Below are positions 15,962 to 64,000 of a stretch of DNA of 64,000 nt, in pieces. Position numbers and translations under genes: made by a program. This stretch comes from Patescibacteria group bacterium. GTDB taxonomy: Bacteria; Patescibacteriota; Microgenomatia; UBA8517. Position 1 is the first letter of the stretch, and each line of letters opens with the position of its first letter. The notes beneath the pieces are model-generated. The model was not told where the DNA came from. It did no database searches and saw nothing but the letters and a program-made list of their open reading frames with translations. The stretch is taken from contig JAOAEL010000006.1 in the NCBI GenBank assembly GCA_026416845.1, positions 390 through 64,389 of the forward strand. Reading direction: 5' to 3'.

Positions 15962-16876
15962 TTACTCCCCAAGAGCAGATTTAACCGCTGGTTCCATTTG
16001 GGTATAACTGTAAGCACCGGCAAATTTTGTGGTGTTTACAAAAAACGCAGGTGTGCCTGAAACTCCCAAAGAACGGGCAATTGCCATTTCAGAAGAAGGC
16101 CTGTTGTCATACTTGCCACTTTCAAGACAAGACTTCATGTCTGAAAGGTTGACAGCACTTGCCAAAAAATCTGCAAGTTCTTTTGCTTTTGATTTGTCAT
16201 TTTTAACCACATTGTTAAGCAATTCATAGCCTTTGTTGGAATACAAAAGATCATGCGCTTGCCAAAACTTTCCTTTTTCATTAGCACACAAAAGCGCTTT
16301 GTGCCCCATTTCTCCATTGCCATGTCCATCAGAAAAGATATAAACAAGAGAAGCTTTTTTAGAATCAACCAACTTTTTTATTTCAGTCATTGGAGGGACA
16401 TACGTTCCTCCCTCAGAAACCGATTTGAATTGTGAATACCTAGAATCAGATTCAATCAATTTATTAACAAGCTCAGGATTTTTGCCGCCAGCTATATGAC
16501 AAAAAGGGCAACTTGGATCTTCAACGACAACAAACGTAAGCTTTGAATTTTTATCTCCAAAAGTAAGCAACTTTTGATCAAACAATTTTTTAATTTGATC
16601 TTTGGTTACATTAACTTGCTCTTGTTGTTGATTAGCTTGCTGTTGCACGTTAGAATTTGCGGCTGTTTTTCCTTTCTCAAGCGATGAAACTTTCTCCCAC
16701 AAAATACCAGCAATAAATGACAAAACAATAGCAAAAAGAGTTAAAACAGGAACTAACCTTTCCAACAAAGAAAATTTTTTAGGTTGCTCTAATAAAGAAC
16801 TACCACTAAGATCGTCATACTTAGAGGATAAATCTAAGCTTGTTGCTTTTGTAGATGTTTTTTTCTTTACCGCCAT
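15962..16876 (-). CDS. DsbA-like thioredoxin-fold thiol:disulfide oxidoreductase, membrane-anchored
   Basis: N-terminal TM helix, Q-rich linker, CPFC active site, C-terminal thioredoxin-fold (GTPAFFVN cis-Pro region). Confidence 0.75.
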   Translation of the reverse strand: MAVKKKTSTKATSLDLSSKYDDLSGSSLLEQPKKFSLLERLVPVLTLFAIVLSFIAGILWEKVSSLEKGKTAANSNVQQQANQQQEQVNVTKDQIKKLFDQKLLTFGDKNSKLTFVVVEDPSCPFCHIAGGKNPELVNKLIESDSRYSQFKSVSEGGTYVPPMTEIKKLVDSKKASLVYIFSDGHGNGEMGHKALLCANEKGKFWQAHDLLYSNKGYELLNNVVKNDKSKAKELADFLASAVNLSDMKSCLESGKYDNRPSSEMAIARSLGVSGTPAFFVNTTKFAGAYSYTQMEPAVKSALGE

Positions 16877-47706: not shown

Positions 47707-48537
47707 ATGACAGATTACGATCCTTACATTTGGTCAATTAGTAAAGAAAATACTAACAAAGAATATGTGCCAAATATCAAAAGAGCGGGCTTACTGAATA
47801 AAAACCGGGAATTTGCCGATTTCTCTGAGCTGTGGAACCCTATCCAAGAAAAAATTCCAGAAACATTCTTAAGAACAATAGCTGTTATAAATTTCGCAAG
47901 AGCAGAGGATCCCGGAGGACAAATTTTCGCCAGAAAACTTTATGGTGCACCTATAATTGGCAAGCACGAAGAAACTTCCTTTGTCGATGAAAAAACCCAA
48001 ATGAGACAAAGCTTAATATACATGAATGTTGACAAAAGTGTAAAAATTACAAAAGAAGAGTTTAGAGCCGTTCTTGTCCACGAAATAGGGCACGCCGTTT
48101 TCAGAAATTTAAAAGAAGACGAGCTAGAAAGGTGGTCTGCTATCGACACAGTTGAAAAAACTAGTGTCTCCGAATACGTTTCTGATAGAAGGAAATCCGG
48201 CAAACAACAAGATACAGTCAAAGACGATTTTTGCGAAAGTTTCGCCCTTTTTGTAGAAATTCCTGGATTATTAAAAATAATTGCGCCACAAAGATATGCA
48301 TACATGGAAAAATTATTTAGCAATCATGACGAACCTTTATTGATAGCAAAAAAAAGAGAAAACAGAGAAAGAGAAGTGGAAAAATACCAAACTGAAATGA
48401 GAAATCTGGGTTGGGATGAAGAAAAAATTCGTGCCGGTTATCAAGATGGTAAAAGATATCCATTAAACTGGATACCTCAATACATCCAAAAATACACTAA
48501 CACTACAAATACACCTGAAAGAGAACAAACAGAGTAA
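47707..48537 (+). CDS. putative zinc metallopeptidase-like protein (HExxH)
   Basis: AVLVHEIGHAVF motif; otherwise uncharacterised. Confidence 0.5.
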   Translation: MTDYDPYIWSISKENTNKEYVPNIKRAGLLNKNREFADFSELWNPIQEKIPETFLRTIAVINFARAEDPGGQIFARKLYGAPIIGKHEETSFVDEKTQMRQSLIYMNVDKSVKITKEEFRAVLVHEIGHAVFRNLKEDELERWSAIDTVEKTSVSEYVSDRRKSGKQQDTVKDDFCESFALFVEIPGLLKIIAPQRYAYMEKLFSNHDEPLLIAKKRENREREVEKYQTEMRNLGWDEEKIRAGYQDGKRYPLNWIPQYIQKYTNTTNTPEREQTE

Positions 48538-50682: not shown

Positions 50683-50776
50683 AAGATTGTAAGTATTTAA
50701 AATAAACTAGCCAATAAACTAAGCTAGTACTAGTTTAGGGGCAACTTTAAAATAAAGTCAATACTCAAATTTATTG

Positions 50777-50850
50777 TGCCAGGGGCGAGATTCGAACTCG
50801 CGACCTTCGGTTTATGAATCCGATGCTCTAACCAACTGAGCTACCCAGGC
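50777..50850 (-). tRNA. tRNA with CAU anticodon (elongator Met or Ile2-lysidine type)
   Basis: Reverse complement GCCTGGGTAGCTCAGTTGGTTAGAGCATCGGATTCATAAACCGAAGGTCGCGAGTTCGAATCTCGCCCCTGGCA: anticodon loop UUCAUAA, G1-C72 pair, no GGG/CCC in anticodon stem (so not the initiator). Confidence 0.75.
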
Positions 50851-50960
50851 CTTGGCAAATTTTATCGTATTTGAATTGGCTTCTCAATCAATATATAATT
50901 GCAAATAAGATTAAAATCTTATTTTATCTTGATTTTAAAATAATCACCTAAAAAAATTCA

Positions 50961-51030
50961 TGCGGGGTAGTGTACGGCTGCACGGGAGGCTCATAATCTC
51001 CCAGGCTGGGTTCAACTCCCAGCCCCGCAA
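50961..51030 (+). tRNA. second CAU-anticodon tRNA, unusual (U1-A72, short D-loop)
   Basis: TGCGGGGTAGTGTACGGCTGCACGGGAGGCTCATAATCTCCCAGGCTGGGTTCAACTCCCAGCCCCGCAA: acceptor TGCGGGG/CCCCGCA, anticodon loop CUCAUAA, T-loop TTCAACT; 70 nt. Confidence 0.55.
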
Positions 51031-51352
51031 CATATATCACACTTAATAACTTAAAAGAAGACAAAAAAGTAAAAATTACTTTCAGGCCAATCATAGCGAT
51101 AGAAATAATTGTTCAAAAAAAATTTCTTAATATAGTTATTCTCTAAACTTTAAAAAATGTTTTTTAAGCCTAATTATAATTTAATTCTTGTGCCAAGAAG
51201 AAAAAATTTAAGTCAAATTTGTCACAAAAGGTTAAATCACAAATGAAAATTTAGAATATTGGCACGGACTACGTTCAAACACATGCCAAGCAAACCATGA
51301 CTGAAAACTAAAAAAACATACAACATTTATTAAAAAACTGAATAAACAAAAA

Positions 51353-51760
51353 TCAGTTATAAAAAATTTTTAACCACATTTCCCAATTAGAAACCTTTTC
51401 TTCTTTTACATCATCATAAAGCCTGGGAACAATTTTTCTTAATTCATCTTCAGAAGGCAAAACAACCACTATCTCTCCTTGCCTTGCCATACCAAGTTTG
51501 TCCCGTAGCATTTTTTCCGCAAAATAAAAATCATCTGTTTCTTTTAACTTTTCTTTAATCTCTGACTGTTTATCCAACTCTACCTGAACTTTTTGTTCGT
51601 ACTTGGAAACAATATTGATAGCACTAAAATACTGAAATAAGGTTTTAAAAAACGAACTTAAAAAAAGCAAAAGAAATACAATACCTGTATAAAAAACAAT
51701 TTTGGAAAATTTACTTTCTTTTTGGGAAAAAACATTTCTTTTTGAAACTATTTTATTCAT
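51353..51760 (-). CDS. FtsB/DivIC-like septum formation initiator (tentative)
   Basis: Single N-terminal TM helix, coiled-coil, C-terminal AEKMLRDKLGMARQGEIVVVLP resembles the FtsB/DivIC family C-terminus. Confidence 0.45.
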   Translation of the reverse strand: MNKIVSKRNVFSQKESKFSKIVFYTGIVFLLLFLSSFFKTLFQYFSAINIVSKYEQKVQVELDKQSEIKEKLKETDDFYFAEKMLRDKLGMARQGEIVVVLPSEDELRKIVPRLYDDVKEEKVSNWEMWLKIFYN

Positions 51761-51904
51761 ACAATTTACAATAAAAACATTGACCTGTTTTTAAAAACTA
51801 TGATACCATTGTTCAAATAATATAATAACTTACCATTTATTTTAGTTTAAATATAATACAAATTTCACAAATCTAAAATTTTATCAACAAAAAATCAAAA
51901 ATTT

Positions 51905-52768
51905 ATGATAAAAAACAAGTTATATGAACTCCTTCCTTTATTTGCAGAACATCTTAAAAACAAAGGTCGATCTCTTGCAACAATTTTCGCTTACAAAGCA
52001 GATATTGAACAATTAATAGAGTATCTTAACAAAAATGCAAAAACTACTCCCACACAAGTTACAAAAGAAGACATTGATAATTTCCGCGACACTTTGTTAA
52101 GAAGAAAATATGTTCCAAAATCAGTTTCCAGAAAACTCAATGCAATAAAAACTTTTTTCAAATGGCTACTTGATAACAAGTATATAACTAAAAACGTTTC
52201 TGAATACGTAGAACACCCAAAAGTTAATGTTGAAAAACCCAAGTTCATGAGTCCACTTGAGTACCGCGCTCTTCGGGATGCATCCCGCGATGACGAAAGA
52301 ACTGGAGGAATAATCGAGCTCATACTACAAACAGGACTTAGAATATCCGAAATCAGCAACCTAAAATGCTCAAACATTTCAGATAAAGAAATTTTAATTG
52401 AGGCATACGCAACCCAACCATCAAGAAAAGTACCACTAAATAAAAGGGCTAAAGAAGCAATTGAAAGATATAAAAAAGTCCGCCCCGAAACGAAATATCC
52501 TCATTTTTTCGTAAGCAAAAGTGGCAAACCTTTGGCAGTAAGAAACATCAGAGCATCAATTGATAGATACATGCAAAAAGCTGAAATTCAAAACTTTTCT
52601 GTAAACGATCTAAGAACAACATTTATCGTAGAAAATTTAAAAGCAGGAGTTGATGTGATATTAATATCTCAAGTTTCAGGGCATAAAAGAATTTCAACAA
52701 CTGAAAAATATTTGGAAATTATAGGTATAAAAGATCGTGGCAAAAAACAGGAACTTATTGAGTTATAA
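51905..52768 (+). CDS. tyrosine recombinase (XerC/XerD-like integrase family)
   Basis: N-terminal SAM-like domain (SLATIFAYKADIEQLIEYL), catalytic-domain boxes LRISEISNL, NDLRTTF, SGHKRISTTEKYLEI (Tyr); both box II His residues are replaced (N, T). Confidence 0.75.
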   Translation: MIKNKLYELLPLFAEHLKNKGRSLATIFAYKADIEQLIEYLNKNAKTTPTQVTKEDIDNFRDTLLRRKYVPKSVSRKLNAIKTFFKWLLDNKYITKNVSEYVEHPKVNVEKPKFMSPLEYRALRDASRDDERTGGIIELILQTGLRISEISNLKCSNISDKEILIEAYATQPSRKVPLNKRAKEAIERYKKVRPETKYPHFFVSKSGKPLAVRNIRASIDRYMQKAEIQNFSVNDLRTTFIVENLKAGVDVILISQVSGHKRISTTEKYLEIIGIKDRGKKQELIEL

Positions 52769-53390
52769 TTTAAGACAGAAAAGTAAGAAGAATGTTTTTA
52801 GCTTCCAACCAAAATTAGCTTTTTAAATAAACCTTAACTCTCTAAGAGACAAAACCCAAACAACACATTCACCTGTTACCAAAGATAAAGCTAATACTTT
52901 ACAAGAAATCAAGATACGATAACACTACACCCTCTTTTTTTCAAAAACAACACCCAAAGACTCAGTGTAAAGCTTATATTAAACTACCACACGACTCTTT
53001 ATTAATCCTTAGGTAACAGAGGATACCTATTGGTCTCATGTCCCCTAAATTTCTCACTAAAAGTTACATAAGAAACTACCAATTCACCCTCTTTTTTAGG
53101 TTCAACTTGGGCACAATTTTCCACTGAAAATCTATCTTTTACCAACATCTCCAAACTCCTAGACATTCTAGCTCACCTCCTTTTTTACATCCTGTAGACC
53201 TGAGAAAAAGATCTTTATTGTTGAGTTGTTAGCTGTAGTGTAGCAAACGAACGCGTTTTCCGTTAATAATCACCATGACAAATAACTATCGTCCGTGAAG
53301 AGCAATTATATCAGCCTTTGCTTGTTTCCTATTAATCTCAACCCGCTAAAGCGCCAAAATCACTCAACAAAGATATGTAACTGACGACAC

Positions 53391-54760
53391 CTAACAACAC
53401 CGTATGTACTGCAAATTAGACAACCCTCTTTTTGTATTCTCATTTGTCAAATACAAATTGTAAAATAACGTGTAACTCAAACCTTCTCGATCTTCGCCTG
53501 GCACAAAACATACACATACAATTCCAAAACTAAACACACAAGATAACTTTCCTCTCAAGAGGAGAGTTCCAAAGGTGACTTCAAGTCTTTTCCTACTAGT
53601 CAAAACTAATCTTTCTGCCAAATCACAATACTTTTTATCAACATCATAGGAAACATATTTTCTGCTCGTTTTTATAGCCGCTATGCAAGTAGTCCCACTG
53701 CCAGCAAATGGATCTAGAACAATTTCATCTTCAAAAGTATAAAGTTGTATCAATAGTGCCTTTTTTTCTTGTGAGGATTTAATCTGGTAAATGTGCTTTT
53801 ACAAAACACAAGAATGTATTCATGGACATCGCGTAAAACTGGATTGTTAGCCTTTAAGTATGTCCCCCAAGCTGTTGAAAAACTAGCTCTACTGCCTTTG
53901 TTCCAAATAATTTATCCCTTCATTAAAAAACCAATGTTGTGCATATCTTCAATTATGTAGCTATGTAATGGTAAGTAAGGCTTCCTGCCAAGATTGGTTA
54001 TATTTACGCAATCTCTACTACCGAGGGATGAATAAATGTTTTTTTAAAAACGCTTTTTAATAGTTCTCTGTATTCATCAAGAGACAGATTTTCATCATAC
54101 TCTTTGCCTACATTATAGAGCGGCGAAGTAACCATTAGTGCACATTGTTATCTGGAAGCTCTGACATGGGTTGGCTACTTTTGCAAAAAATTTTATTTAT
54201 ATTTTGAGGATCAATTTGATTTTCTACATATTCAACATCTTTGACAATGCTTAAACCTTGATAAAGTTTGCTGTTATAAAACCTATAAAAATCATGACTT
54301 ATGTAACCCGGCGTACCAAAAGCGATTGTCTGTATTCCATTTTTCCTAAGATTGCTCAAATTTCGTTTTGCCATGCTTTCTGTTATCTAGATTCACGTAA
54401 TAACTGTAAAAATTTCTGTGCCTTTTCCTCGTAAGTAACTTCCTTATTTGCTAATTCAATAATTTCCCCCAGCTCTTTTTTGTTTTGGATACTAGAAAAA
54501 AACTCCCTCTCTTCTCTCAAAAGATTTACAGCGCTTTCTTGCAACTTTCCATACAAGTCAAATTTACAAAAACCTCCAAATGGGGTTTCCTTTATGCTTC
54601 CGCCATTATTATCCAAAGATCGTGGATTAATAGACCAAAATCCCTGAATAATTCCGCTTCTCTTTAAATGGTCTACTTTACCATAATAGCTTTTAGTAAT
54701 TGGAGTGTTACCAACAACAATAAAAGGAGTTTTTGCTTTGCAATGCTGTTTTATCACCAA
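53391..54760 (-). pseudogene. N6/N4 DNA methyltransferase (beta class) decayed into several out-of-frame fragments
   Basis: 53391..53753 encodes the C-terminal motif I LDPFAGSGTTCIAAIKTSRKYVSYD. A different frame just upstream encodes IIWNKGSRASFSTAWGTYLKANNPVLRDVHEYILVFCKS, and a third GRKPYLPLHSYIIEDMHNIGF. ORFs 54135..54374 and 54383..54760 may be N-terminal remnants. Confidence 0.55.
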
Positions 54761-55282
54761 AATAATTCTTAGACCAGTAGGCTAAGCATCTTTTTTTCCT
54801 TGGTAATATAAAAAGCTGTTCAGGAGCTAAAAAATCTAAAGATTTGATAAAAAATTTTTTTGTAATCTTGATTCCAAAGCTTTGCCATAAAATCATTCTA
54901 ATAATTTTTAATTATTTAAAAATTAACAACAACTAAAAAATTTATTTAAGTAAACAATCCTAAATTAGGAATTAGTTAAAAACTAATCCTATTTTTGGAA
55001 ATAATCATTAGATACATCAAAGCATGCTTGAGAAATTTACAACATTAATTCTTCTAGTTTGTTTTATATTAGCAAGTTCAACAAAGTTTAATGCTTTAAT
55101 TTGATCAATACAGTTTTATTCTGTATTTAAAAAATTTGCAAAAATAAAGCAATAATTCCTCTTTAGATTATTAAACATAAAATTAATCAAAACAAAATAT
55201 TGCTAAAGTTTTATCTTACTTCGTAAAATTTACCAGCCACCAACTTTATTTTTGCTTTTATTAATGTTATAGTCTCTCTGCA

Positions 55283-56356
55283 ATGAGAATTGATAACGAT
55301 GTAAAGCTTGATTATTGTGATGTTTTGCTCCGCCCCAAAAGAAGCACATTAACAAGTCGAAAAGATGTTGTACTAGAAAGAACATTCAAATTTTACCATT
55401 CTAAAAAAACATGGACAGGTGTTCCAATAATGACTGCCAATATGGCAACCTGTGGAACTTTTGAAATGGCCAAAATTCTATCTGAACACAAAATAATTAC
55501 AACTTTTCATAAATATTACGAAATCGAGGAATATAAAAAATTCTTTTTAGAATTTGACAATCCGGATTATATTGTCTACACCACAGGGATTCGCGATGAA
55601 GACTTTGCAAAAATTGCTAAGATGAAAAAGGCTAAACTAATGAATAAGTTTAGTTTCATTTGTGTTGACGTCCCTAACGGATACCTTGAAAGATTTGTCG
55701 AAAGCATAATAAGAATACGTAATGAATTTCCTGATCATATAATTATTGCTGGAAACGTGGTCACAAATGAAATGACTGAAGAAATAATTTTATCAGGTGC
55801 GGATATCGTAAAGGTTGGAATTGGCTCAGGAGCCGCTTGTACTACAAGGAAAATGACCGGAGTTGGATATCCGCAATTATCTGCGGTAATTGAATGCGCA
55901 GACGCGGCTCATGGAATATCAAACACGCAAGGTTACGGTTTAATAATTGCCGACGGTGGGCAACAGTATCCCTCCTGTGTCGCCAAAGCTTTCTGCGCAG
56001 GAGCTGATTTCAACATGATGGGATCAATGTTTTCTGGTTTTGAAGAAAGCGGTGGAGAAACCGTCATTAAAAATGGCAAAAAATATAAGGAATATTTCGG
56101 ATCATCTTCAAACCACGCGCTAAAAAAATTCTATGGCAAAAAAGATTTTCATCGCGCTTCAGAAGGCCGTTACACTTTAATTCCTCACAAAGGTTCAATA
56201 AATGATTTTTTGCAAGACTTGTTTGGTTCTTTAAGAAGTACTGGCACATACATAGGGGCACGATCTTTAAAAGAGTTCTCAAAGAGAGCTACTTTTGTAC
56301 GCGTTAATCGACAATTGGCCACACATCTTGAAAAATATGACATCGAAAATCAGTAA
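55283..56356 (+). CDS. guaC: GMP reductase
   Basis: N-terminus MRIDNDVKLDYCDVLLRPKRSTL, catalytic-Cys loop GIGSGAACTTR, 357 aa without a CBS insert (GuaC rather than IMPDH). Confidence 0.8.
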   Translation: MRIDNDVKLDYCDVLLRPKRSTLTSRKDVVLERTFKFYHSKKTWTGVPIMTANMATCGTFEMAKILSEHKIITTFHKYYEIEEYKKFFLEFDNPDYIVYTTGIRDEDFAKIAKMKKAKLMNKFSFICVDVPNGYLERFVESIIRIRNEFPDHIIIAGNVVTNEMTEEIILSGADIVKVGIGSGAACTTRKMTGVGYPQLSAVIECADAAHGISNTQGYGLIIADGGQQYPSCVAKAFCAGADFNMMGSMFSGFEESGGETVIKNGKKYKEYFGSSSNHALKKFYGKKDFHRASEGRYTLIPHKGSINDFLQDLFGSLRSTGTYIGARSLKEFSKRATFVRVNRQLATHLEKYDIENQ

Positions 56357-58366: not shown

Positions 58367-60238
58367 CTATTCCACCAAGTGTTCTAAATCAAAAAATAAC
58401 AATTTTTCGCCTAATAACAAAAAAGCTTTTCTTTCTTTTTCAAAAACTGCAAAATCAATGGCATCTTTGATTTGTTCTGAAACATATTGCGCTATAAATT
58501 TTCCATCCTTTGAAACAAAAATCACCCTACCAACTAACTTGTCTAAAATGCAAAAAGACTGAGAATCATAACTTGTATAAATACGACTTATTTCTTCTAT
58601 ATTTGGTGAAACACCAACTAATTTAAATGGTTGTACTAAACCATTATACATTTTAGTAATATTAGATTTCTCTGAAAGAATCCATATAAACCCATCTACA
58701 ATCATTTGTTTAGCTTCCCGAAAATTAACATCAGCATTTTGTCTTAACCAAGATTGATTGCTAACATACTTGCCACTATAATCAGCAGAAATACGCAAGA
58801 TTTGATTTTTTCTTTTCGCCAAATAAAAATTTGCGGCATAAGAATAAAAAAGATCATCTTCTTCAAAATTACCTTCATACAAAAAACTAACATCTCCTAA
58901 TTGTTTAATTCCATTTTTGTAAAAAAAATAAACTTTGTTTGTATACACATTAACATCTAAAGCCTCCGAAAGAATTGCAGGCCCAACTAAAATCTCAGAT
59001 CTTTTTGAAGAAACAACAACTTTGGCAAGTTTTGCATTGTTTTTGTCCCAAATATATAAGGATCCATCAGACAATATTAGCTTGTTTCCATAAAAATTTG
59101 AAGACAAAAGAGTAAGATCTATAAATTGAGATGGATTAACTTGATATTCCTTCAATAACTCTTTCCTGTTTTCTTCTATCATCTCCAATAACAACAAAAC
59201 TTTTTCGTTTTGTCTATTTTCATTTGCCAAACCAAGAACTTTATCTTTGGCTCTAACAAAAATTTCTCTAGCACCTTCAGGAGCAAAATTAGCCAATTCA
59301 ATAGCTTGTATAATTTCTTTTTCAACTTCTTTGGTCTTTGATTCCAAAACTGCTTTTTTTTGATTTTCTTGATTTCTCCAAAAACCTAAAACAGCGCTAA
59401 AAATCAAAACAAACAAACAAAAAACACCAACTAAAAGAGAAAATGATTGATTTTTTTCTATTTGCTTAGAAACATTGTGTGATTTAACAACAATACTTTT
59501 AAATCTATTATAATTGTTATCAACAAAAACTGATTCAACAACTTTTTTTCTTGATACAAAATTTTTAAGATTCAAGAAAAAAAAATTATAATTAGCGAGC
59601 AATCTAGGGAAAATGAATCTAGCTCTATTGAAATTCATATTTGAAAACAAACCAAACCCTAAACCAGCTAAATTTTTATTAAAACTATTTGAAAAACCAA
59701 TACATTCATACACAACTCCACTTCCACAAAAATTTGAAAAATCACCCTCACAATAATTAAAAACTTTTCGTTTGAGTATAAATTTAACTTGATCACTCAA
59801 CAAAAAAACCTCTGAAGTGCCAAATAACAAAATATCTCCTTGCATTATTTTCCCTTTAATTGCTTGAATTCTAGAACTTTGACTGCTCAATAACACTCCA
59901 TAGCTATCTCCACGCAAAATTGAAAATCCAATATTAGGACTAACAAAACACGTTATGTCATTTCCACAAACTACCATAACCGAAAACAAAAACCCCTTAT
60001 TTTGTCGCAAAAAATTCAACAAAATCATATAAATCAGTTCCTCTAATTCTTCTTTATTTGAACTTTGCAAAATCTCAAACAAAAACTTTTGAGCTTTTAA
60101 TTTCGGTTGAAGCAAACTATCCTTAAAGTAAAAAAATATTTGAATATTTTTTAAATTAATTTTACCAATATAAACATCATCTATTGTTTTTTTTATATTA
60201 AGATGGAGCTGGGCAGTTGATATTATAGCGGTCTTCAT
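58367..60238 (-). CDS. large hypothetical membrane protein (cytoplasmic N-domain, one central TM helix, extracytoplasmic C-domain)
   Basis: 623 aa; central hydrophobic segment FSLLVGVFCLFVLIFSAVLGFW; last gene of a 4-gene overlapping operon. Confidence 0.55.
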   Translation of the reverse strand: MKTAIISTAQLHLNIKKTIDDVYIGKINLKNIQIFFYFKDSLLQPKLKAQKFLFEILQSSNKEELEELIYMILLNFLRQNKGFLFSVMVVCGNDITCFVSPNIGFSILRGDSYGVLLSSQSSRIQAIKGKIMQGDILLFGTSEVFLLSDQVKFILKRKVFNYCEGDFSNFCGSGVVYECIGFSNSFNKNLAGLGFGLFSNMNFNRARFIFPRLLANYNFFFLNLKNFVSRKKVVESVFVDNNYNRFKSIVVKSHNVSKQIEKNQSFSLLVGVFCLFVLIFSAVLGFWRNQENQKKAVLESKTKEVEKEIIQAIELANFAPEGAREIFVRAKDKVLGLANENRQNEKVLLLLEMIEENRKELLKEYQVNPSQFIDLTLLSSNFYGNKLILSDGSLYIWDKNNAKLAKVVVSSKRSEILVGPAILSEALDVNVYTNKVYFFYKNGIKQLGDVSFLYEGNFEEDDLFYSYAANFYLAKRKNQILRISADYSGKYVSNQSWLRQNADVNFREAKQMIVDGFIWILSEKSNITKMYNGLVQPFKLVGVSPNIEEISRIYTSYDSQSFCILDKLVGRVIFVSKDGKFIAQYVSEQIKDAIDFAVFEKERKAFLLLGEKLLFFDLEHLVE

Positions 60239-60259
60239 TAAACTCTCATTCTGTTATTC

Positions 60260-60487
60260 TTACAAAAGCAAAAAAGAAAAAACAAAAACAAAAACCGCAA
60301 AGCAAAAATGCCCAATCGCTATAATATTCATGATAAAACTAATTCCTACATCCAATGTTTCATTCATATTTATAATTTGCTTTATAACAACACCAGAAAA
60401 TACTATATATATAATCAAAAAAAGCAAAACGATAATTTTTGCCAAAAACCAAATATTTAAACCGGCAAATTCAAATCCTTGAATCAT
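60260..60487 (-). CDS. small membrane protein (75 aa)
   Basis: Two hydrophobic helices; 4-nt overlap with upstream gene. Confidence 0.35.
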   Translation of the reverse strand: MIQGFEFAGLNIWFLAKIIVLLFLIIYIVFSGVVIKQIINMNETLDVGISFIMNIIAIGHFCFAVFVFVFSFLLL

Positions 60488-61272
60488 CTTATTCTTCCTT
60501 CTAGTTTTTCTTGTTCTTCTTCCAATCGCAATTCACGCAATATCTTGGCAACATCGTCAGGTCTTGGAACAGCTTCAAATCTTATTCTTGGAACTTCCCC
60601 AGCTGTTTGAATTACTACATCACCAAAATTAAAAAAAGTTCTCCAAACACCGCTCATCTCCACAGTAACATCTTGAATTTGATCAATATTTGCATCCGTA
60701 ATCTCTCTATAAACTAAATTAACAAAATCAACTTCAAGAATTCTTTCATCAGTAATAATATTCACATTATAAAACCAACTCAAAAACTCTTCCAACACAA
60801 ACGCTAAAGTTATCATATACCAAACCACAAACAAAACAAATTTAAATTCCCAAGGAACAATTTCAATAAAGCCGAAAAATGAGACAAAAATCGGCGCTAA
60901 AAACATAAGCAAAGCAGTAAAAATCCAAGGAATATTTGTAAAAGGATGTTTTCTTAAAAGCAAAATCACTTTTTCCTGACTGTCTTTGTGATAAAAATTA
61001 ACATTTTTTGGATTAATACAATAAGAAGAAAACACTCGACTGTTAGAATCTGCATTGCTTTCAAATTTGAAAGGTTGAAAAGCTTTTTTCGATTGTCTGT
61101 TTTGTTGAGCCTCTGAATCCAGTGTATCAATTAAATCATTTTCAGAAGATTCTTTAGTATCATTTTCGGAATGAATATTTGAAATAAGTTTAGAATCATT
61201 CTTTTCTGCATTATATATTTCAGGCATCTTAAGCAAATTGTAACATAAGACTTGCTTATGGTAAAAAATCAC
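60484..61272 (-). CDS. membrane protein with bacterial PH (bPH_2/DUF304, YdbS/YdbT-like) domain
   Basis: Two TM helices followed by ITDERILEVDF…DVVIQTAGE…IRFEAVPRPDDV pattern typical of the membrane-flanked DUF304. Confidence 0.55.
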   Translation of the reverse strand: MIFYHKQVLCYNLLKMPEIYNAEKNDSKLISNIHSENDTKESSENDLIDTLDSEAQQNRQSKKAFQPFKFESNADSNSRVFSSYCINPKNVNFYHKDSQEKVILLLRKHPFTNIPWIFTALLMFLAPIFVSFFGFIEIVPWEFKFVLFVVWYMITLAFVLEEFLSWFYNVNIITDERILEVDFVNLVYREITDANIDQIQDVTVEMSGVWRTFFNFGDVVIQTAGEVPRIRFEAVPRPDDVAKILRELRLEEEQEKLEGRIR

Positions 61273-62975
61273 AGCTTTTCTATATTATAAAGAGAACTTT
61301 TTATACCAATATATCCAGGAGCTCTAAGATTAAAAGCCCTTTTAAACTCATCTGCTGGAATATTAACAAAACCTTTATTAGTTGTAAAAGAAACAGACAA
61401 AGTACTACCATCTGATCCATATATAACTGAAACTGCTGAAACAGCACTATATCCACCTAAATCAAACAACTCGCTTACGGAGTACGGATTCCCTGTCCAA
61501 CAAGATTTATCTATGGGCGAAATTCGAGAAATATCACCATTTCCTTTATAAATCACGTGCCATGCGTTTAATATATCAGCCATTTGTTCAGAAGTAAGCC
61601 ACGGATGTGACCTGCCACAAGATTTACCACTGCGATCTTTATACCAAGCTTTGTAAAACCATGGAGAGCCAGCAATTTTTTCATATGCGGTCGATGGCCA
61701 ATCAGAAGAAGCATCTTTAATTCCAATCCACCCCCATTGAGAAATAGTATAACCACCAGCACTCGCTGAATAATAAGTTTTCGCGGGAACACCACCTTTA
61801 GTAAGCACCCACCCACGAGTATGACGAACAGCTTCAGCCCACTTGCCTGTTTTTAATTGAGGCTTATAAACTTGGCACTTTTCTGTTGTACAAATACTTC
61901 CTGTACCATTATTAGTCACAGCAAGAGCGTAAGTTCTAGCCGCCACAGCCTGAGCTTTTAAAGCTTCAAAACCTCCGTTATCACCCCAACTTTCAGGAAC
62001 TTCATGTATTCCAAGTAAATAATTCTCCTCAAACGGAATCCTCCCCACTCCTATCACACCTATAGTAGAGGGCACTGGATAATTTTTATTTAACTCTGTT
62101 CCTTGATAATAAGCGGCTAAAATCGTCTCAGCAGATTGTCCAGATAAGCTTCTGCCATAAGCGCCATACTGACTCATACCCACTCTATGGGGAGCTCCGA
62201 ATGAAAAAGCTGCAAAAGCGGGACGAAAACCGGGATCACAAAAAGTACTAGTACCCAAAGATCCAGAACAAGGCTCCGCAGTTGGAGGCACATCTCCAAT
62301 AGAAGTAGAAAAACCACCTGCCTTTAAAGCCAAAAGTTCTTGCTGTTTTTGAGACAAGACTGATAAATATTTTTCAGTTTTTTCAACTTCATTAGCAAGG
62401 AAGCTTGCTCTTTCATCAATTTGTTTTTTAACTTGGGCAAGATTTTTTTTATTTTGCTCCAATTTTTCTTTGTCATTCCTTAATTTAATCAATTTTTGTG
62501 CATGCTGCTGAATACTTTCGACATCAAAACTTGCAACTTTTTGTTGAATTGATATCTCTTGAAAAAACAAGTTTGCGTCATCGGAATAAATAAAAGGCAA
62601 AACTGGGTTATATAATCTAATAAACTTATAATGATTTTTTGTTTTTTCTTCAAAAACAATCTTCGTGTAATTTAAATCCTCTTGTCTTTTAAATATTTCA
62701 TTTTCTTTTATTTCTAACTCCAAAGTTAAATCTTTAATCTTTTTACTTAAACTAACGATTTGATTTTTTAAAGTAGATAATTCCTTTTTATTATTCTCAT
62801 TCGCGCTAGACAAAGCATCTATTTCCTTTTGTATCTCGGCAATTCTACAATCGTAATCTAAATTTGAACAGCCAGATGCTGAAACAAGATAAATAAAAAC
62901 AAAAAACAAAAAGCAAAAAACAATTAAAAATGCCAAATTTTTAAAAACTAAAATTGACAAATTTTTAAAAAACAT
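61269..62975 (-). CDS. SpoIID/LytB-domain protein with N-terminal coiled coil
   Basis: EALKAQAVAARTYAL…CTTEKCQVYK…YSASAGGYT match SpoIID/LytB conserved blocks; N-terminal TM plus long coiled-coil. Confidence 0.7.
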   Translation of the reverse strand: MFFKNLSILVFKNLAFLIVFCFLFFVFIYLVSASGCSNLDYDCRIAEIQKEIDALSSANENNKKELSTLKNQIVSLSKKIKDLTLELEIKENEIFKRQEDLNYTKIVFEEKTKNHYKFIRLYNPVLPFIYSDDANLFFQEISIQQKVASFDVESIQQHAQKLIKLRNDKEKLEQNKKNLAQVKKQIDERASFLANEVEKTEKYLSVLSQKQQELLALKAGGFSTSIGDVPPTAEPCSGSLGTSTFCDPGFRPAFAAFSFGAPHRVGMSQYGAYGRSLSGQSAETILAAYYQGTELNKNYPVPSTIGVIGVGRIPFEENYLLGIHEVPESWGDNGGFEALKAQAVAARTYALAVTNNGTGSICTTEKCQVYKPQLKTGKWAEAVRHTRGWVLTKGGVPAKTYYSASAGGYTISQWGWIGIKDASSDWPSTAYEKIAGSPWFYKAWYKDRSGKSCGRSHPWLTSEQMADILNAWHVIYKGNGDISRISPIDKSCWTGNPYSVSELFDLGGYSAVSAVSVIYGSDGSTLSVSFTTNKGFVNIPADEFKRAFNLRAPGYIGIKSSLYNIEKL

Positions 62976-63103
62976 TGGAATAAAACCAAAATAATCAACA
63001 AATTGTCATAAAAAAATTTAAAAACCAAAATTTAAAAATCATACACAATTATTATAACAAAATGTTTTTATCCTAGGACTTTTAGTGATACAATTATTTC
63101 ACA

Positions 63104-63403
63104 ATGGGATGCAATAGCAGCAATGGTATCGAAACGGCAATTGGTTGCATTTCTTTAATTGGTAGCAACCCATTAACAGACATGATATATATTTTTTTAA
63201 GGCTTGGAGGAAACATAGTAGGAGGAATGGGTTTAATACTTATAGTATATTCTGGATATATGTTAATGACATCGGCTGGAAATCCTCAAAAAGTTCAAGC
63301 CGCCAAAGAGTTACTTACAGCTTCAATTTCAGGTATTTTAATGTTACTTTTTGCTGTATTTTTGTTAAGAATAATTGGATCCGATTTGTTGATACTATTT
63401 TAA
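63104..63403 (+). CDS. TrbC/VirB2-like (T4SS-pilin-like) small membrane protein, paralog 1
   Basis: 99 aa; two TM helices flanking the conserved loop YMLMTSAGNPQKVQAAKELL. Confidence 0.6.
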   Translation: MGCNSSNGIETAIGCISLIGSNPLTDMIYIFLRLGGNIVGGMGLILIVYSGYMLMTSAGNPQKVQAAKELLTASISGILMLLFAVFLLRIIGSDLLILF

Positions 63404-63441
63404 ATTTAAACATTTTCAATCATGAATAAATTTTAGTTTTT

Positions 63442-63771
63442 ATGAAATCTAATTACTTGTCTTTGCGAAGAGAAGATCTTGTTCAAATGGAAAATGCCTT
63501 AACACCAAACTTTGCAGGAAAAAGTTTGGGAGATGTAATATCAGCAGCCATACCATATGTATTCAGTTTTGCGGGATTTGCTCTTTTAATTTACATTATC
63601 TTTTCTGGATATAAATTTTTGACATCGCAAGGCGATTCAAAAAAGGTAGAAATCGCAAAAGAAAACCTAACAACAGCTATAATTGGGTTCATAATAATAT
63701 TTACATCATACTTTATAGTCCAAATAATTGGAAGAATACTTGGTATAAATCAAATACAAGAAATGTTTTGA
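63442..63771 (+). CDS. T4SS-pilin-like small membrane protein, paralog 2
   Basis: 109 aa; same architecture, loop YKFLTSQGDSKKVEIAKENL. Confidence 0.6.
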   Translation: MKSNYLSLRREDLVQMENALTPNFAGKSLGDVISAAIPYVFSFAGFALLIYIIFSGYKFLTSQGDSKKVEIAKENLTTAIIGFIIIFTSYFIVQIIGRILGINQIQEMF

Positions 63772-63803
63772 ACAACAGCATCCAAACATTCAAACATAAA
63801 TAT

Positions 63804-64000
63804 ATGAACAATCTTGCAATTGACCTAGGCAGAACTTTCTTTGGGGGAAACACACCCCATCCAACTGAACAAGTAACAGGGCTTGGTTCTATGGTGTCTG
63901 TTTTTGTTTCAAACTCAATTATCTTGGCTGGTTTAATATTTATGTTTATGACAATTTATGCTGGTTTTCAAATAATAATGGCAGCGGGAGACTCAAATGA
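63804..64000 (+). CDS. T4SS-pilin-like small membrane protein, paralog 3 (partial, runs off window)
   Basis: ATG at 63804; hydrophobic helix then …FQIIMAAGDSN at the window edge, same loop signature. Confidence 0.5.
   Translation, partial: MNNLAIDLGRTFFGGNTPHPTEQVTGLGSMVSVFVSNSIILAGLIFMFMTIYAGFQIIMAAGDSN

Follow-up and report, generated by a model that had tools for sequence, protein, structure and literature searches.

Among the bacteria not yet cultured, a large part of the diversity belongs to the Patescibacteria, which live attached to host cells. Their type IV secretion system (T4SS) is the sole one known to be essential for the growth of its owner, and no other Gram-positive-type system has VirB2-like pilins (PMC12857230). 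Quinonero-Coronel et al. (2025, PMC12102498), who defined an array as at least two pilin-family genes in tandem or with one non-pilin gene between them, counted 441 VirB2-like arrays, each with 2-11 genes, across 383 assemblies and at a mean identity of 25%; these arrays were commonest in Microgenomatia and Saccharimonadia, VirB4 was present in 2,417 of 3,035 assemblies, and virB4 lay near dnaA/dnaN in Microgenomatia. The T4SS cluster of Southlakia holds six sequence-divergent VirB2-like pilins (PMC12857230), and its pilin series is essential (Wang et al. 2023, PMC10633639). Here we describe three consecutive open reading frames (ORF1-3) at the 3' end of a 64,000-nucleotide stretch of a Microgenomatia genome (contig JAOAEL010000006.1; the whole stretch that was analysed is called the window). 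As three consecutive pilin-family genes they form an array in the sense of PMC12102498, and the locus is a further case of the tandem VirB2-like pilin arrays in Patescibacteria already published in 2025. ORF1-3 probably belong to a conserved chromosomal operon for VirB2-like T4SS_pilin proteins, subunits of the T4SS in Patescibacteria, and encode its types 1-3, as numbered by position in the array:

63104..63403, plus strand: ORF1, complete, 99 amino acids (aa); type-1 pilin-like protein
63442..63771, plus strand: ORF2, complete, 109 aa; type-2 pilin-like protein
63804..64000, plus strand: ORF3, type-3 pilin-like protein; ATG at 63804, 65 of 105 codons before the window end

An earlier note, made from the letters of this DNA, had placed a tandem array of three T4SS-pilin-like paralogs here, and its start coordinate, the three consecutive ORFs and all three loop motifs (MTSAGNPQKVQAAKELL in ORF1, LTSQGDSKKVEIAKENL in ORF2 and MAAGDSN in ORF3) agreed with the ORF list and the translations. 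ORF2 is identical to the database protein P0001, which bears the NCBI name 'pilin'. The full-length product of ORF3 is P0007 (105 aa, locus tag N2558_03710), whose residues 1-65 are identical to the window translation and whose length places the stop about 121 nt past the window end; the source contig (64,688 bp) provides at most 688 nt of sequence beyond the window. The genes are separated by spacers of 38 nt (ORF1-ORF2) and 32 nt (ORF2-ORF3), and a scan of 62.8-64.0 kb revealed no terminator-like site between the pilin genes, no DNA-level repeats and no Rfam elements. These results fit a single operon of genes that diverged anciently. ORF1 and ORF2 match each other in BLASTP with an E value of 2e-13 which, together with family profile scores above the cut-off (see below), indicates that their likeness is not due to chance. 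No further pilin-like ORFs were found elsewhere in the window. The N-terminus of ORF1 contains a Cys3-x11-Cys15 loop that is kept in its orthologs; a DsbA-like thioredoxin-fold protein encoded at 15962-16876 of the minus strand could form a disulfide in this loop.

In searches with the family profile PF18895 (T4SS_pilin; gathering cut-off 26.6 bits), ORF1 scored 30.3 bits over profile positions 5-70 of 71 and ORF2 37.2 bits over positions 4-71, both passing the cut-off. The 65-aa fragment of ORF3 alone was not significant in these comparisons and had no PF18895 match, while P0007 has a precomputed PF18895 match and the ortholog of ORF3 in the relative L001 scores 38.6 bits. Assignment to a T4SS-pilin-like family enriched in the Candidate Phyla Radiation, as proposed in the earlier note, therefore holds for all three. 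The family is very large: 92,522 cluster representatives were counted at E ≤1e-3. When 111 homologs were scanned, PF18895 was found in 104, and the second commonest family, TrbC (PF04956), in 12, always below threshold (best E 0.0013). NF045849, a pilin-like conjugal transfer protein of Mycoplasma integrative and conjugative elements (ICEs), was matched by 95 of the 111; ORF2 reached 32.1 bits with this model (E 6.9e-8, over the whole hairpin), ORF1 23.9 bits and the ORF3 fragment 14.3 bits. None of them attained its equivalog cut-off of 40 bits and, judged by these scores, ORF1-3 are related to NF045849 but are not equivalogs of it. A holin identity was considered and rejected on account of the six or more copies, the lack of a phage context and the hydrophobic C-termini.

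According to hydropathy, ORF1-3 have a common plan in which a polar N-tail (25-32 aa) leads into a long hydrophobic helix, followed by a turn and a second hydrophobic helix. The turn comprises 5-6 residues, with G(D/N) followed by 2-4 K/R, and the three proteins thus show the two hydrophobic helices and short positive turn typical of VirB2. In the AlphaFold2 model of ORF2, for which 111 homologs were used, the mean predicted local distance difference test score (pLDDT) was 78.8, with about 90 across the hairpin; helices were predicted at residues 10-20, 29-60 and 66-100, the last two forming the hairpin with a 5-residue turn. A leader in the manner of VirB2, i.e. a long cleavable signal peptide with an A-x-A|Q-type site, is present in all eight real VirB2/TrbC proteins compared and is not found in ORF1-3; ORF1 cannot be extended upstream, since in-frame TGA and TAG stops lie 5 and 6 codons before its ATG. 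A mini-motif, M-x(0-8)-hydrophobic-hydrophobic-A-Q, was observed at the extreme N-terminus of 19 of the 101 short pilins tallied in L005-L024 and alignment A2, and in 0 of 257 other small ORFs. It resembles the cleavage end of a signal peptide (A-x-A|Q of the long type-1 proteins and of real VirB2) without the hydrophobic core, is degenerate in ORF2 (LSL) and ORF3 (LAI), and may be a candidate processing site.

A genome scan seeded with a six-sequence alignment, which biases the loci found towards type-2 orthologs, yielded 25 related loci, nearly all from Microgenomatia (Woese-, Gottesman-, Shapiro-, Beckwith- and Daviesbacteria), the best match among GTDB representatives being 72% identical. 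The closest relatives, L001 (a 107.7-kb Logan contig) and L004 (GTDB, JANWVB010000049), are both syntenic with the window and carry six pilin-like genes of 99-126 aa on the plus strand. With ORF3 cut by the window end and six genes in a row in these relatives, the array runs past the window edge, as had been supposed. Orthology is one-to-one, ORF1, ORF2 and ORF3 corresponding to genes 1, 2 and 3 of L001, so that the paralogs are indeed conserved elsewhere, in the same position. Orthologs are 61% (L001) and 68% (L004) identical for ORF1, about 71% for ORF2 and 72-74% to L001 gene 3 for ORF3, while paralogs share 13-38%. The pilin orthologs, at 61-74%, diverge no faster than the neighbouring minus-strand genes described below, for which the values were 48-50% (U623), 60-64% (DUF5657), 63-65% (bPH) and 76-78% (SpoIID).

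The same order is found well beyond the closest relatives. Positions 1-6 in L004, L007, L019, L020 and L039 have L001 genes 1-6 as their best matches, in the same order, in the following collinear arrays:

L001:9691-11869
L004:5784-7856
L007:9218-13918
L019:8961-13503
L020:8553-11715
L039:4359-7567

Since positions 1-6 are collinear across these loci, the array is a fixed-order set of six ancient types, of which the window contains types 1-3. Across loci the second pilin gene is of the ORF2 type, and extra pilin copies occur at the 3' end of the arrays only. The first gene usually encodes 150-510 aa, in which a signal peptide and a Cys-rich ectodomain precede a pilin domain at the C-terminus; orthologs of ORF1 outside the window clade that were compared have 228-453 aa and show the same signal peptide and ectodomain. 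One protein, P0126, is a natural fusion of type-1-like, type-2-like and type-3-like domains in that order, with the junctions ...VAYAQ and ...VYAQ. Together with P0121, P0124 and P0127 it belongs to a group of single polypeptides with 2-17 tandem pilin hairpins, which may be true fusions or artefacts of gene calling; P0121 and P0124 have six hairpin domains behind one signal peptide.

Many lineages, though not the window clade, carry a minus-strand insert of 0.8-9 kb between pilin type 2 and a distal run of 4-9 pilins (L006, L008-L010, L012, L017, L022 and L024; e.g. L010:10258-18839). The shortest inserts contain UppS alone, and the longest add an extracytoplasmic function (ECF) sigma factor and a complete mevalonate pathway (HMG-CoA synthase and reductase, kinases and decarboxylase); a small membrane protein is also encoded. 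With this content, and on the opposite strand, the genes between types 2 and 3 were rejected as T4SS genes. Nine of the records (L007, L008, L012, L015, L016, L018, L020, L021 and L023) bear the title 'Nevskiaceae', 'uncultured Gammaproteobacteria' or 'uncultured Pseudomonadales'; as the locus is typical of Microgenomatia, these taxonomy labels of metagenome-assembled genomes are probably wrong.

No VirB4-like gene was detected among the ORFs inspected or scanned for Walker A motifs in the loci of the first scan. Just after the distal arrays, however, lies a conserved polytopic protein of 450-670 aa with 5-7 transmembrane (TM) helices and no Pfam model, which we call fam0 and which was located at:

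L005:18779-20245
L007:15293-16675
L016:6504-8048
L019:15425-16372
L026:10693-12402
L037, L039, L041 and L042: 10001 onward

More than 714 homologs of fam0 exist, all annotated 'hypothetical'. One member gave a sub-threshold TrbL/VirB6 match (E 5.5e-4). A search of PDB sequences with the fam0 profile returned nothing and matches came from the fold search alone: with an AlphaFold2 model (pLDDT 77.9), the top eight PDB fold matches were all TrwI/VirB6 of the R388 T4SS, the best with an E value of 1.8e-3 and a probability of 1.00. On the strength of this model, fam0 is probably the diverged VirB6 of Microgenomatia, which fits the finding in PMC12102498 that, owing to divergence, homologs of VirB6 are 'scarce' in this class.

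Via fam0 homologs, sister loci with T4SS genes were found in L037 (Curtissbacteria), L039/L040, L041 and L042. Their order is pilin array, large secreted protein, fam0, one minus-strand gene, PrgI, TraC-like protein and VirB4-type ATPase, with the array 8-12 kb upstream of VirB4. The large secreted protein has 805-1687 aa; its L041 version contains a Cellulase domain and that of L042 a lysozyme-like SLT_3 domain. PrgI (VirB3-like) was recognised in L037 and L039/L040, and an unannotated gene occupies that position in L041 and L042. The VirB4-type ATPase carries P-loop_TraG, DUF87 and AAA_10 domains; in L039/L040 and L041 dnaN comes next, in keeping with the dnaA/dnaN neighbourhood of virB4 published for Microgenomatia (PMC12102498). 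The L039 locus joins the block of minus-strand genes with the SpoIID-domain gene, eight pilin genes and the T4SS core in one uninterrupted stretch. Small genes for 23S_rRNA_IVP proteins (PF05635, four-helix bundle) were also noted, scattered within the pilin/T4SS loci of L042 (1461-1877, 9514-9885 and 14417-14794) and L037 (15958-16350).

The observed family membership, hairpin architecture and six-type order, and the linkage to VirB6-, PrgI- and TraC-like and VirB4 genes in sister lineages, lead us to propose the following scheme. Each pilin would insert in the cytoplasmic membrane as a helical hairpin with its N-tail and C-terminus outside and its basic turn inside, a topology suggested by homologs in which a signal peptide and an ectodomain precede the same hairpin. 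The hairpins would be taken up by a monoderm-type machine consisting of a VirB6-like platform, PrgI/VirB3-like and TraC-like proteins and a VirB4 ATPase and, by analogy with R388, extraction and assembly on the VirB6 platform would be powered by VirB4. The product would be a hetero-oligomeric surface filament or conduit serving the epibiotic lifestyle, in host contact or exchange; that it is built by a T4SS is suggested by the gene context in sister lineages and by the literature. Because of the orthology, the fixed order and the natural fusion protein, the paralogs would be distinct, anciently diverged subunit types acting together rather than variable copies. In the window genome and its two closest relatives the array lies apart from the VirB6/VirB4 genes, which must be elsewhere if present, and type 1 of this clade has lost the large ectodomain of other lineages. 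By analogy with Southlakia (PMC10633639), the array may be essential.

Several results weigh against this interpretation. The TrbC/VirB2 type named in the earlier note holds as a resemblance but not as membership of that family: ORF2 scored 15.4 bits with PF04956 (cut-off 27.9 bits) and ORF1 and ORF3 had no match, and a comparison by hhalign with eight MPF_T proteins annotated as VirB2/TrbC fell short of significance (P 0.045, probability 1.2%), although TM1, turn and TM2 were aligned in the correct register. By score, then, ORF1-3 are PF18895 members that resemble VirB2. A profile search of PDB sequences gave spurious matches only, with no pilin among them, and Foldseek with the ORF2 hairpin gave nothing significant (E ≥3). 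ORF1-3 have no Sec signal peptide, no hydrophobic segment ahead of TM1 and no recognisable processing site, so that the signal peptidase or other processing features by which the earlier note meant to recognise pilins are not seen. We found neither VirB4, VirB6/fam0 nor other T4SS machinery in the 63 kb upstream within the window, and no T4SS genes in L001 over the 8.5 kb that follow the array; the VirB4/VirB6-like genes for which the note meant to look were seen in the sister loci. Neither VirB3 nor VirB4 lies in the window, the neighbours of the array being the divergent SpoIID-domain gene and more pilin genes. As no fam0 or VirB4 homolog was found in the window, nor downstream in L001, a T4SS in this genome is inferred and unproven. 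Finally, we know of no pilus made of these proteins in any Patescibacterium, nor in the literature examined.

The most serious rival is that ORF1-3 are T4SS components without being pilus subunits, and form a membrane-proximal translocation channel or stalk with no extended filament. MPF_FATA (Gram-positive-type) systems, the group of the patescibacterial VirB4, are generally without pili (PMC12102498, PMC10633639), kinship to the small ICE protein of the wall-less Mycoplasma is robust (NF045849 in 95 of 111 homologs), and fused polypeptides with 6-17 hairpins (P0121, P0124, P0127) fit polymerisation of single subunits poorly. We nevertheless regard a channel as unlikely, since the type-1 proteins of most lineages display a large Cys-rich ectodomain behind a signal peptide, which suits surface display, since at least six distinct types seem more than the lining of a channel needs, and since a pilus is considered likely in the review literature (PMC12857230). 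A role independent of any T4SS, as envelope proteins acting with the SpoIID/bPH/DUF5657/623-aa block or with a 502-aa membrane protein in cell-wall or envelope remodelling, has in its favour that the SpoIID block is adjacent and divergent in about 20 of the 25 loci, that the array of the window clade is uncoupled from VirB6/VirB4 and then followed by the uncharacterised 502-aa protein, and that many lineages have UppS, mevalonate pathway and ECF sigma factor genes between types 2 and 3. We consider this improbable: SmpB and ComF are equally syntenic, so that adjacency may be mere inherited gene order, the divergent orientation means that the two blocks are not co-transcribed, the SpoIID-adjacent array of L039 runs straight into VirB6-like, PrgI, TraC-like and VirB4 genes, and the 502-aa protein has no family or PDB match.

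Antigenic diversification, suggested in the earlier note and also floated for VirB2-like arrays in PMC12102498, would make the locus an antigenic or host-range variation cassette, in which alternative major pilins evolve fast and replace one another by exchange or recombination. The low identity between paralogs, the analogy with the VirB2 arrays of Bartonella and Anaplasma (PMC12102498) and the lineage-specific extra copies at the 3' end of arrays would agree with it. However, each paralog has a one-to-one ortholog at the same position across the class, these orthologs are as similar to each other as the products of flanking genes are, no DNA repeats or recombination substrates lie between the copies, and P0126 joins types 1, 2 and 3 in one polypeptide, all of which makes such a cassette very improbable. 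With ordinary rates, one-to-one orthologs and a fixed order, specialised subunits are favoured over antigenic variation. The same note also spoke of a DNA-uptake appendage, a wording that points to type IV pili (T4P), and Patescibacteria do use T4P for host attachment (PMC10633639, PMC11623550). That ORF1-3 are T4P subunits or type II secretion pseudopilins is effectively refuted by their sequence: the translations contain no class III prepilin leader (G|F-x-x-x-E, as in G/F-T-L-I-E) and give no N_methyl Pfam match, the two-helix hairpin differs from a single N-terminal helix with a globular head, and protein scans of the window revealed no PilB/C/D/M genes near the array. The wording conflates the array with T4P and competence, whereas the literature links the T4SS to epibiotic growth and not to DNA uptake (PMC12857230).

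Upstream of the array, the window contains the following features:

62976..63103, intergenic: 128 nt, AT-rich, divergent, between the SpoIID-domain gene and ORF1
61269..62975, minus strand: SpoIID/LytB-domain protein, 568 aa, a membrane-anchored coiled coil with a peptidoglycan remodelling domain
60484..61272, minus strand: bPH_2-domain membrane protein (Pfam)
60260..60487, minus strand: DUF5657 protein (Pfam)
58367..60238, minus strand: 623-aa membrane protein (U623), no family match, one central TM helix

The intergenic region is presumed to be the promoter region of the array; one weak sigma-70-like match occurs at 63003-63031, and promoter-like matches across 62800-64000 were no commoner than in shuffled sequences. 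The SpoIID-domain protein matches PF08486 with 56 bits and TIGR02669 with 118 bits (cut-off 83.3). The order of the minus-strand block (58367..62975) recurs across Microgenomatia loci, and the block also adjoins the array divergently in L039; the SpoIID-domain protein may be functionally tied to the array. U623 is the fastest-evolving gene of the block. In L001 and L004 the minus strand likewise encodes an uncharacterised protein of 617-623 aa, DUF5657, bPH and a SpoIID-domain protein; ComF-like and SmpB genes precede the block in L001, and an extra pilin-like gene lies upstream of it in L004, which is a short contig. After the sixth pilin gene, and in the window clade only, follows the 502-aa protein with about 8 TM helices (L001:11925-13433, L004:8070-9530), for which searches of Pfam, NCBIfam and PDB sequences gave no match. 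Its N-terminus ('...DHKPPLIYY') recalls by eye a GT-C/ArnT-type glycosyltransferase, an unconfirmed guess given the empty searches.

The window has about 33% G+C and is otherwise of housekeeping character, with genes for FtsH, a class I aminoacyl-tRNA synthetase (Trp/Tyr type), RecF, an ATP-dependent DNA ligase, a P-type ATPase and, next to tmRNA, SmpB. At 50776-50850 and 50961-51031 lie two tRNA-Met genes of opposite orientation; a XerC/D-type tyrosine recombinase (51905-52768) comes after them, and then about 2.5 kb without long ORFs, in which a C-terminal fragment of an N6/N4 DNA methylase is found (53391-53753). The region 50776-55283 may be the remains of an integrated element or of a restriction-modification system. 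A 276-aa protein encoded at 47707-48537 of the plus strand gave a sub-threshold match to the metalloprotease domain of anthrax lethal factor (ATLF).

More tentatively, and with some doubt on our side, the loci may be parts of a class-wide Microgenomatia 'super-locus', so far not described as one unit, with the array at its 5' end, extending from the SpoIID block to VirB4 (plus dnaN in L039/L040 and L041). Its order would be the SpoIID block, six pilins (type 1 with an adhesin-like ectodomain), a glycanase-like secreted protein, fam0/VirB6, PrgI, a TraC-like protein and VirB4. If so, the six types would form one hetero-oligomeric appendage, comparable to one of major and minor pilins, the SpoIID block would breach the wall in a VirB1-like manner and thereby be the source of this missing function, and the window clade would be a split variant that has lost the type-1 ectodomain. 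Three points, namely the fixed six-type collinearity, the SpoIID adjacency and fam0 as VirB6-like, were not found in the searched literature. They are modest extensions and concern the related loci more than the window, and the window locus alone adds little to the picture of the patescibacterial T4SS. Six ancient types in fixed order argue for a multi-subunit appendage over antigenic variation, fam0 is a strong candidate for the VirB6 that surveys with hidden Markov models found scarce in Microgenomatia, and the SpoIID-domain protein, as a constant neighbour, is a candidate wall-remodelling partner.

When compared with described systems, ORF1-3 resemble Agrobacterium VirB2 and RP4 TrbC in their size of about 100-120 aa, their two long hydrophobic helices with a short turn and a weak, correctly registered alignment. 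They differ from them in a sub-threshold profile score, in the lack of a long cleavable signal peptide and of adjacent virB1/virB3, in a turn that is seven residues longer, in showing no evidence of cyclisation and in their monoderm host. With the Aeropyrum pernix CedA1-type pilus (8dfu) and the F-pilus subunit TraA they share the helical-hairpin subunit; 8dfu, an archaeal conjugation pilus, was the most probable Foldseek match of the ORF2 model (TM-scores 0.48/0.59), but this match was not significant (E 5.2, probability 0.35), and fold searches discriminate simple hairpins poorly. The closest curated family outside PF18895 is the Mbov_0395/MMCAP2_0565 family of Mycoplasma ICEs (NF045849). 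It likewise belongs to a monoderm MPF_FATA-type system, consistent with the VirB4 phylogeny in PMC12102498, whereas its genes lie on mobile elements in Mycoplasma and those studied here are chromosomal, with ORF2 at 32 bits against a cut-off of 40. Unlike the array of TM7x, described as 'Sec secreted', ORF1-3 have no signal peptide. With respect to the published patescibacterial arrays in general, the window array neither lies within nor adjoins a T4SS cluster that can be recognised, has a SpoIID-domain gene as its divergent neighbour and is followed in its closest relatives by the unrelated 502-aa membrane protein; it shares with them, and with SEML1_0006-0019 of Southlakia epibionticum, the PF18895 family, the tandem arrangement, a paralog identity of about 25%, the enrichment in Microgenomatia and a core of six genes.

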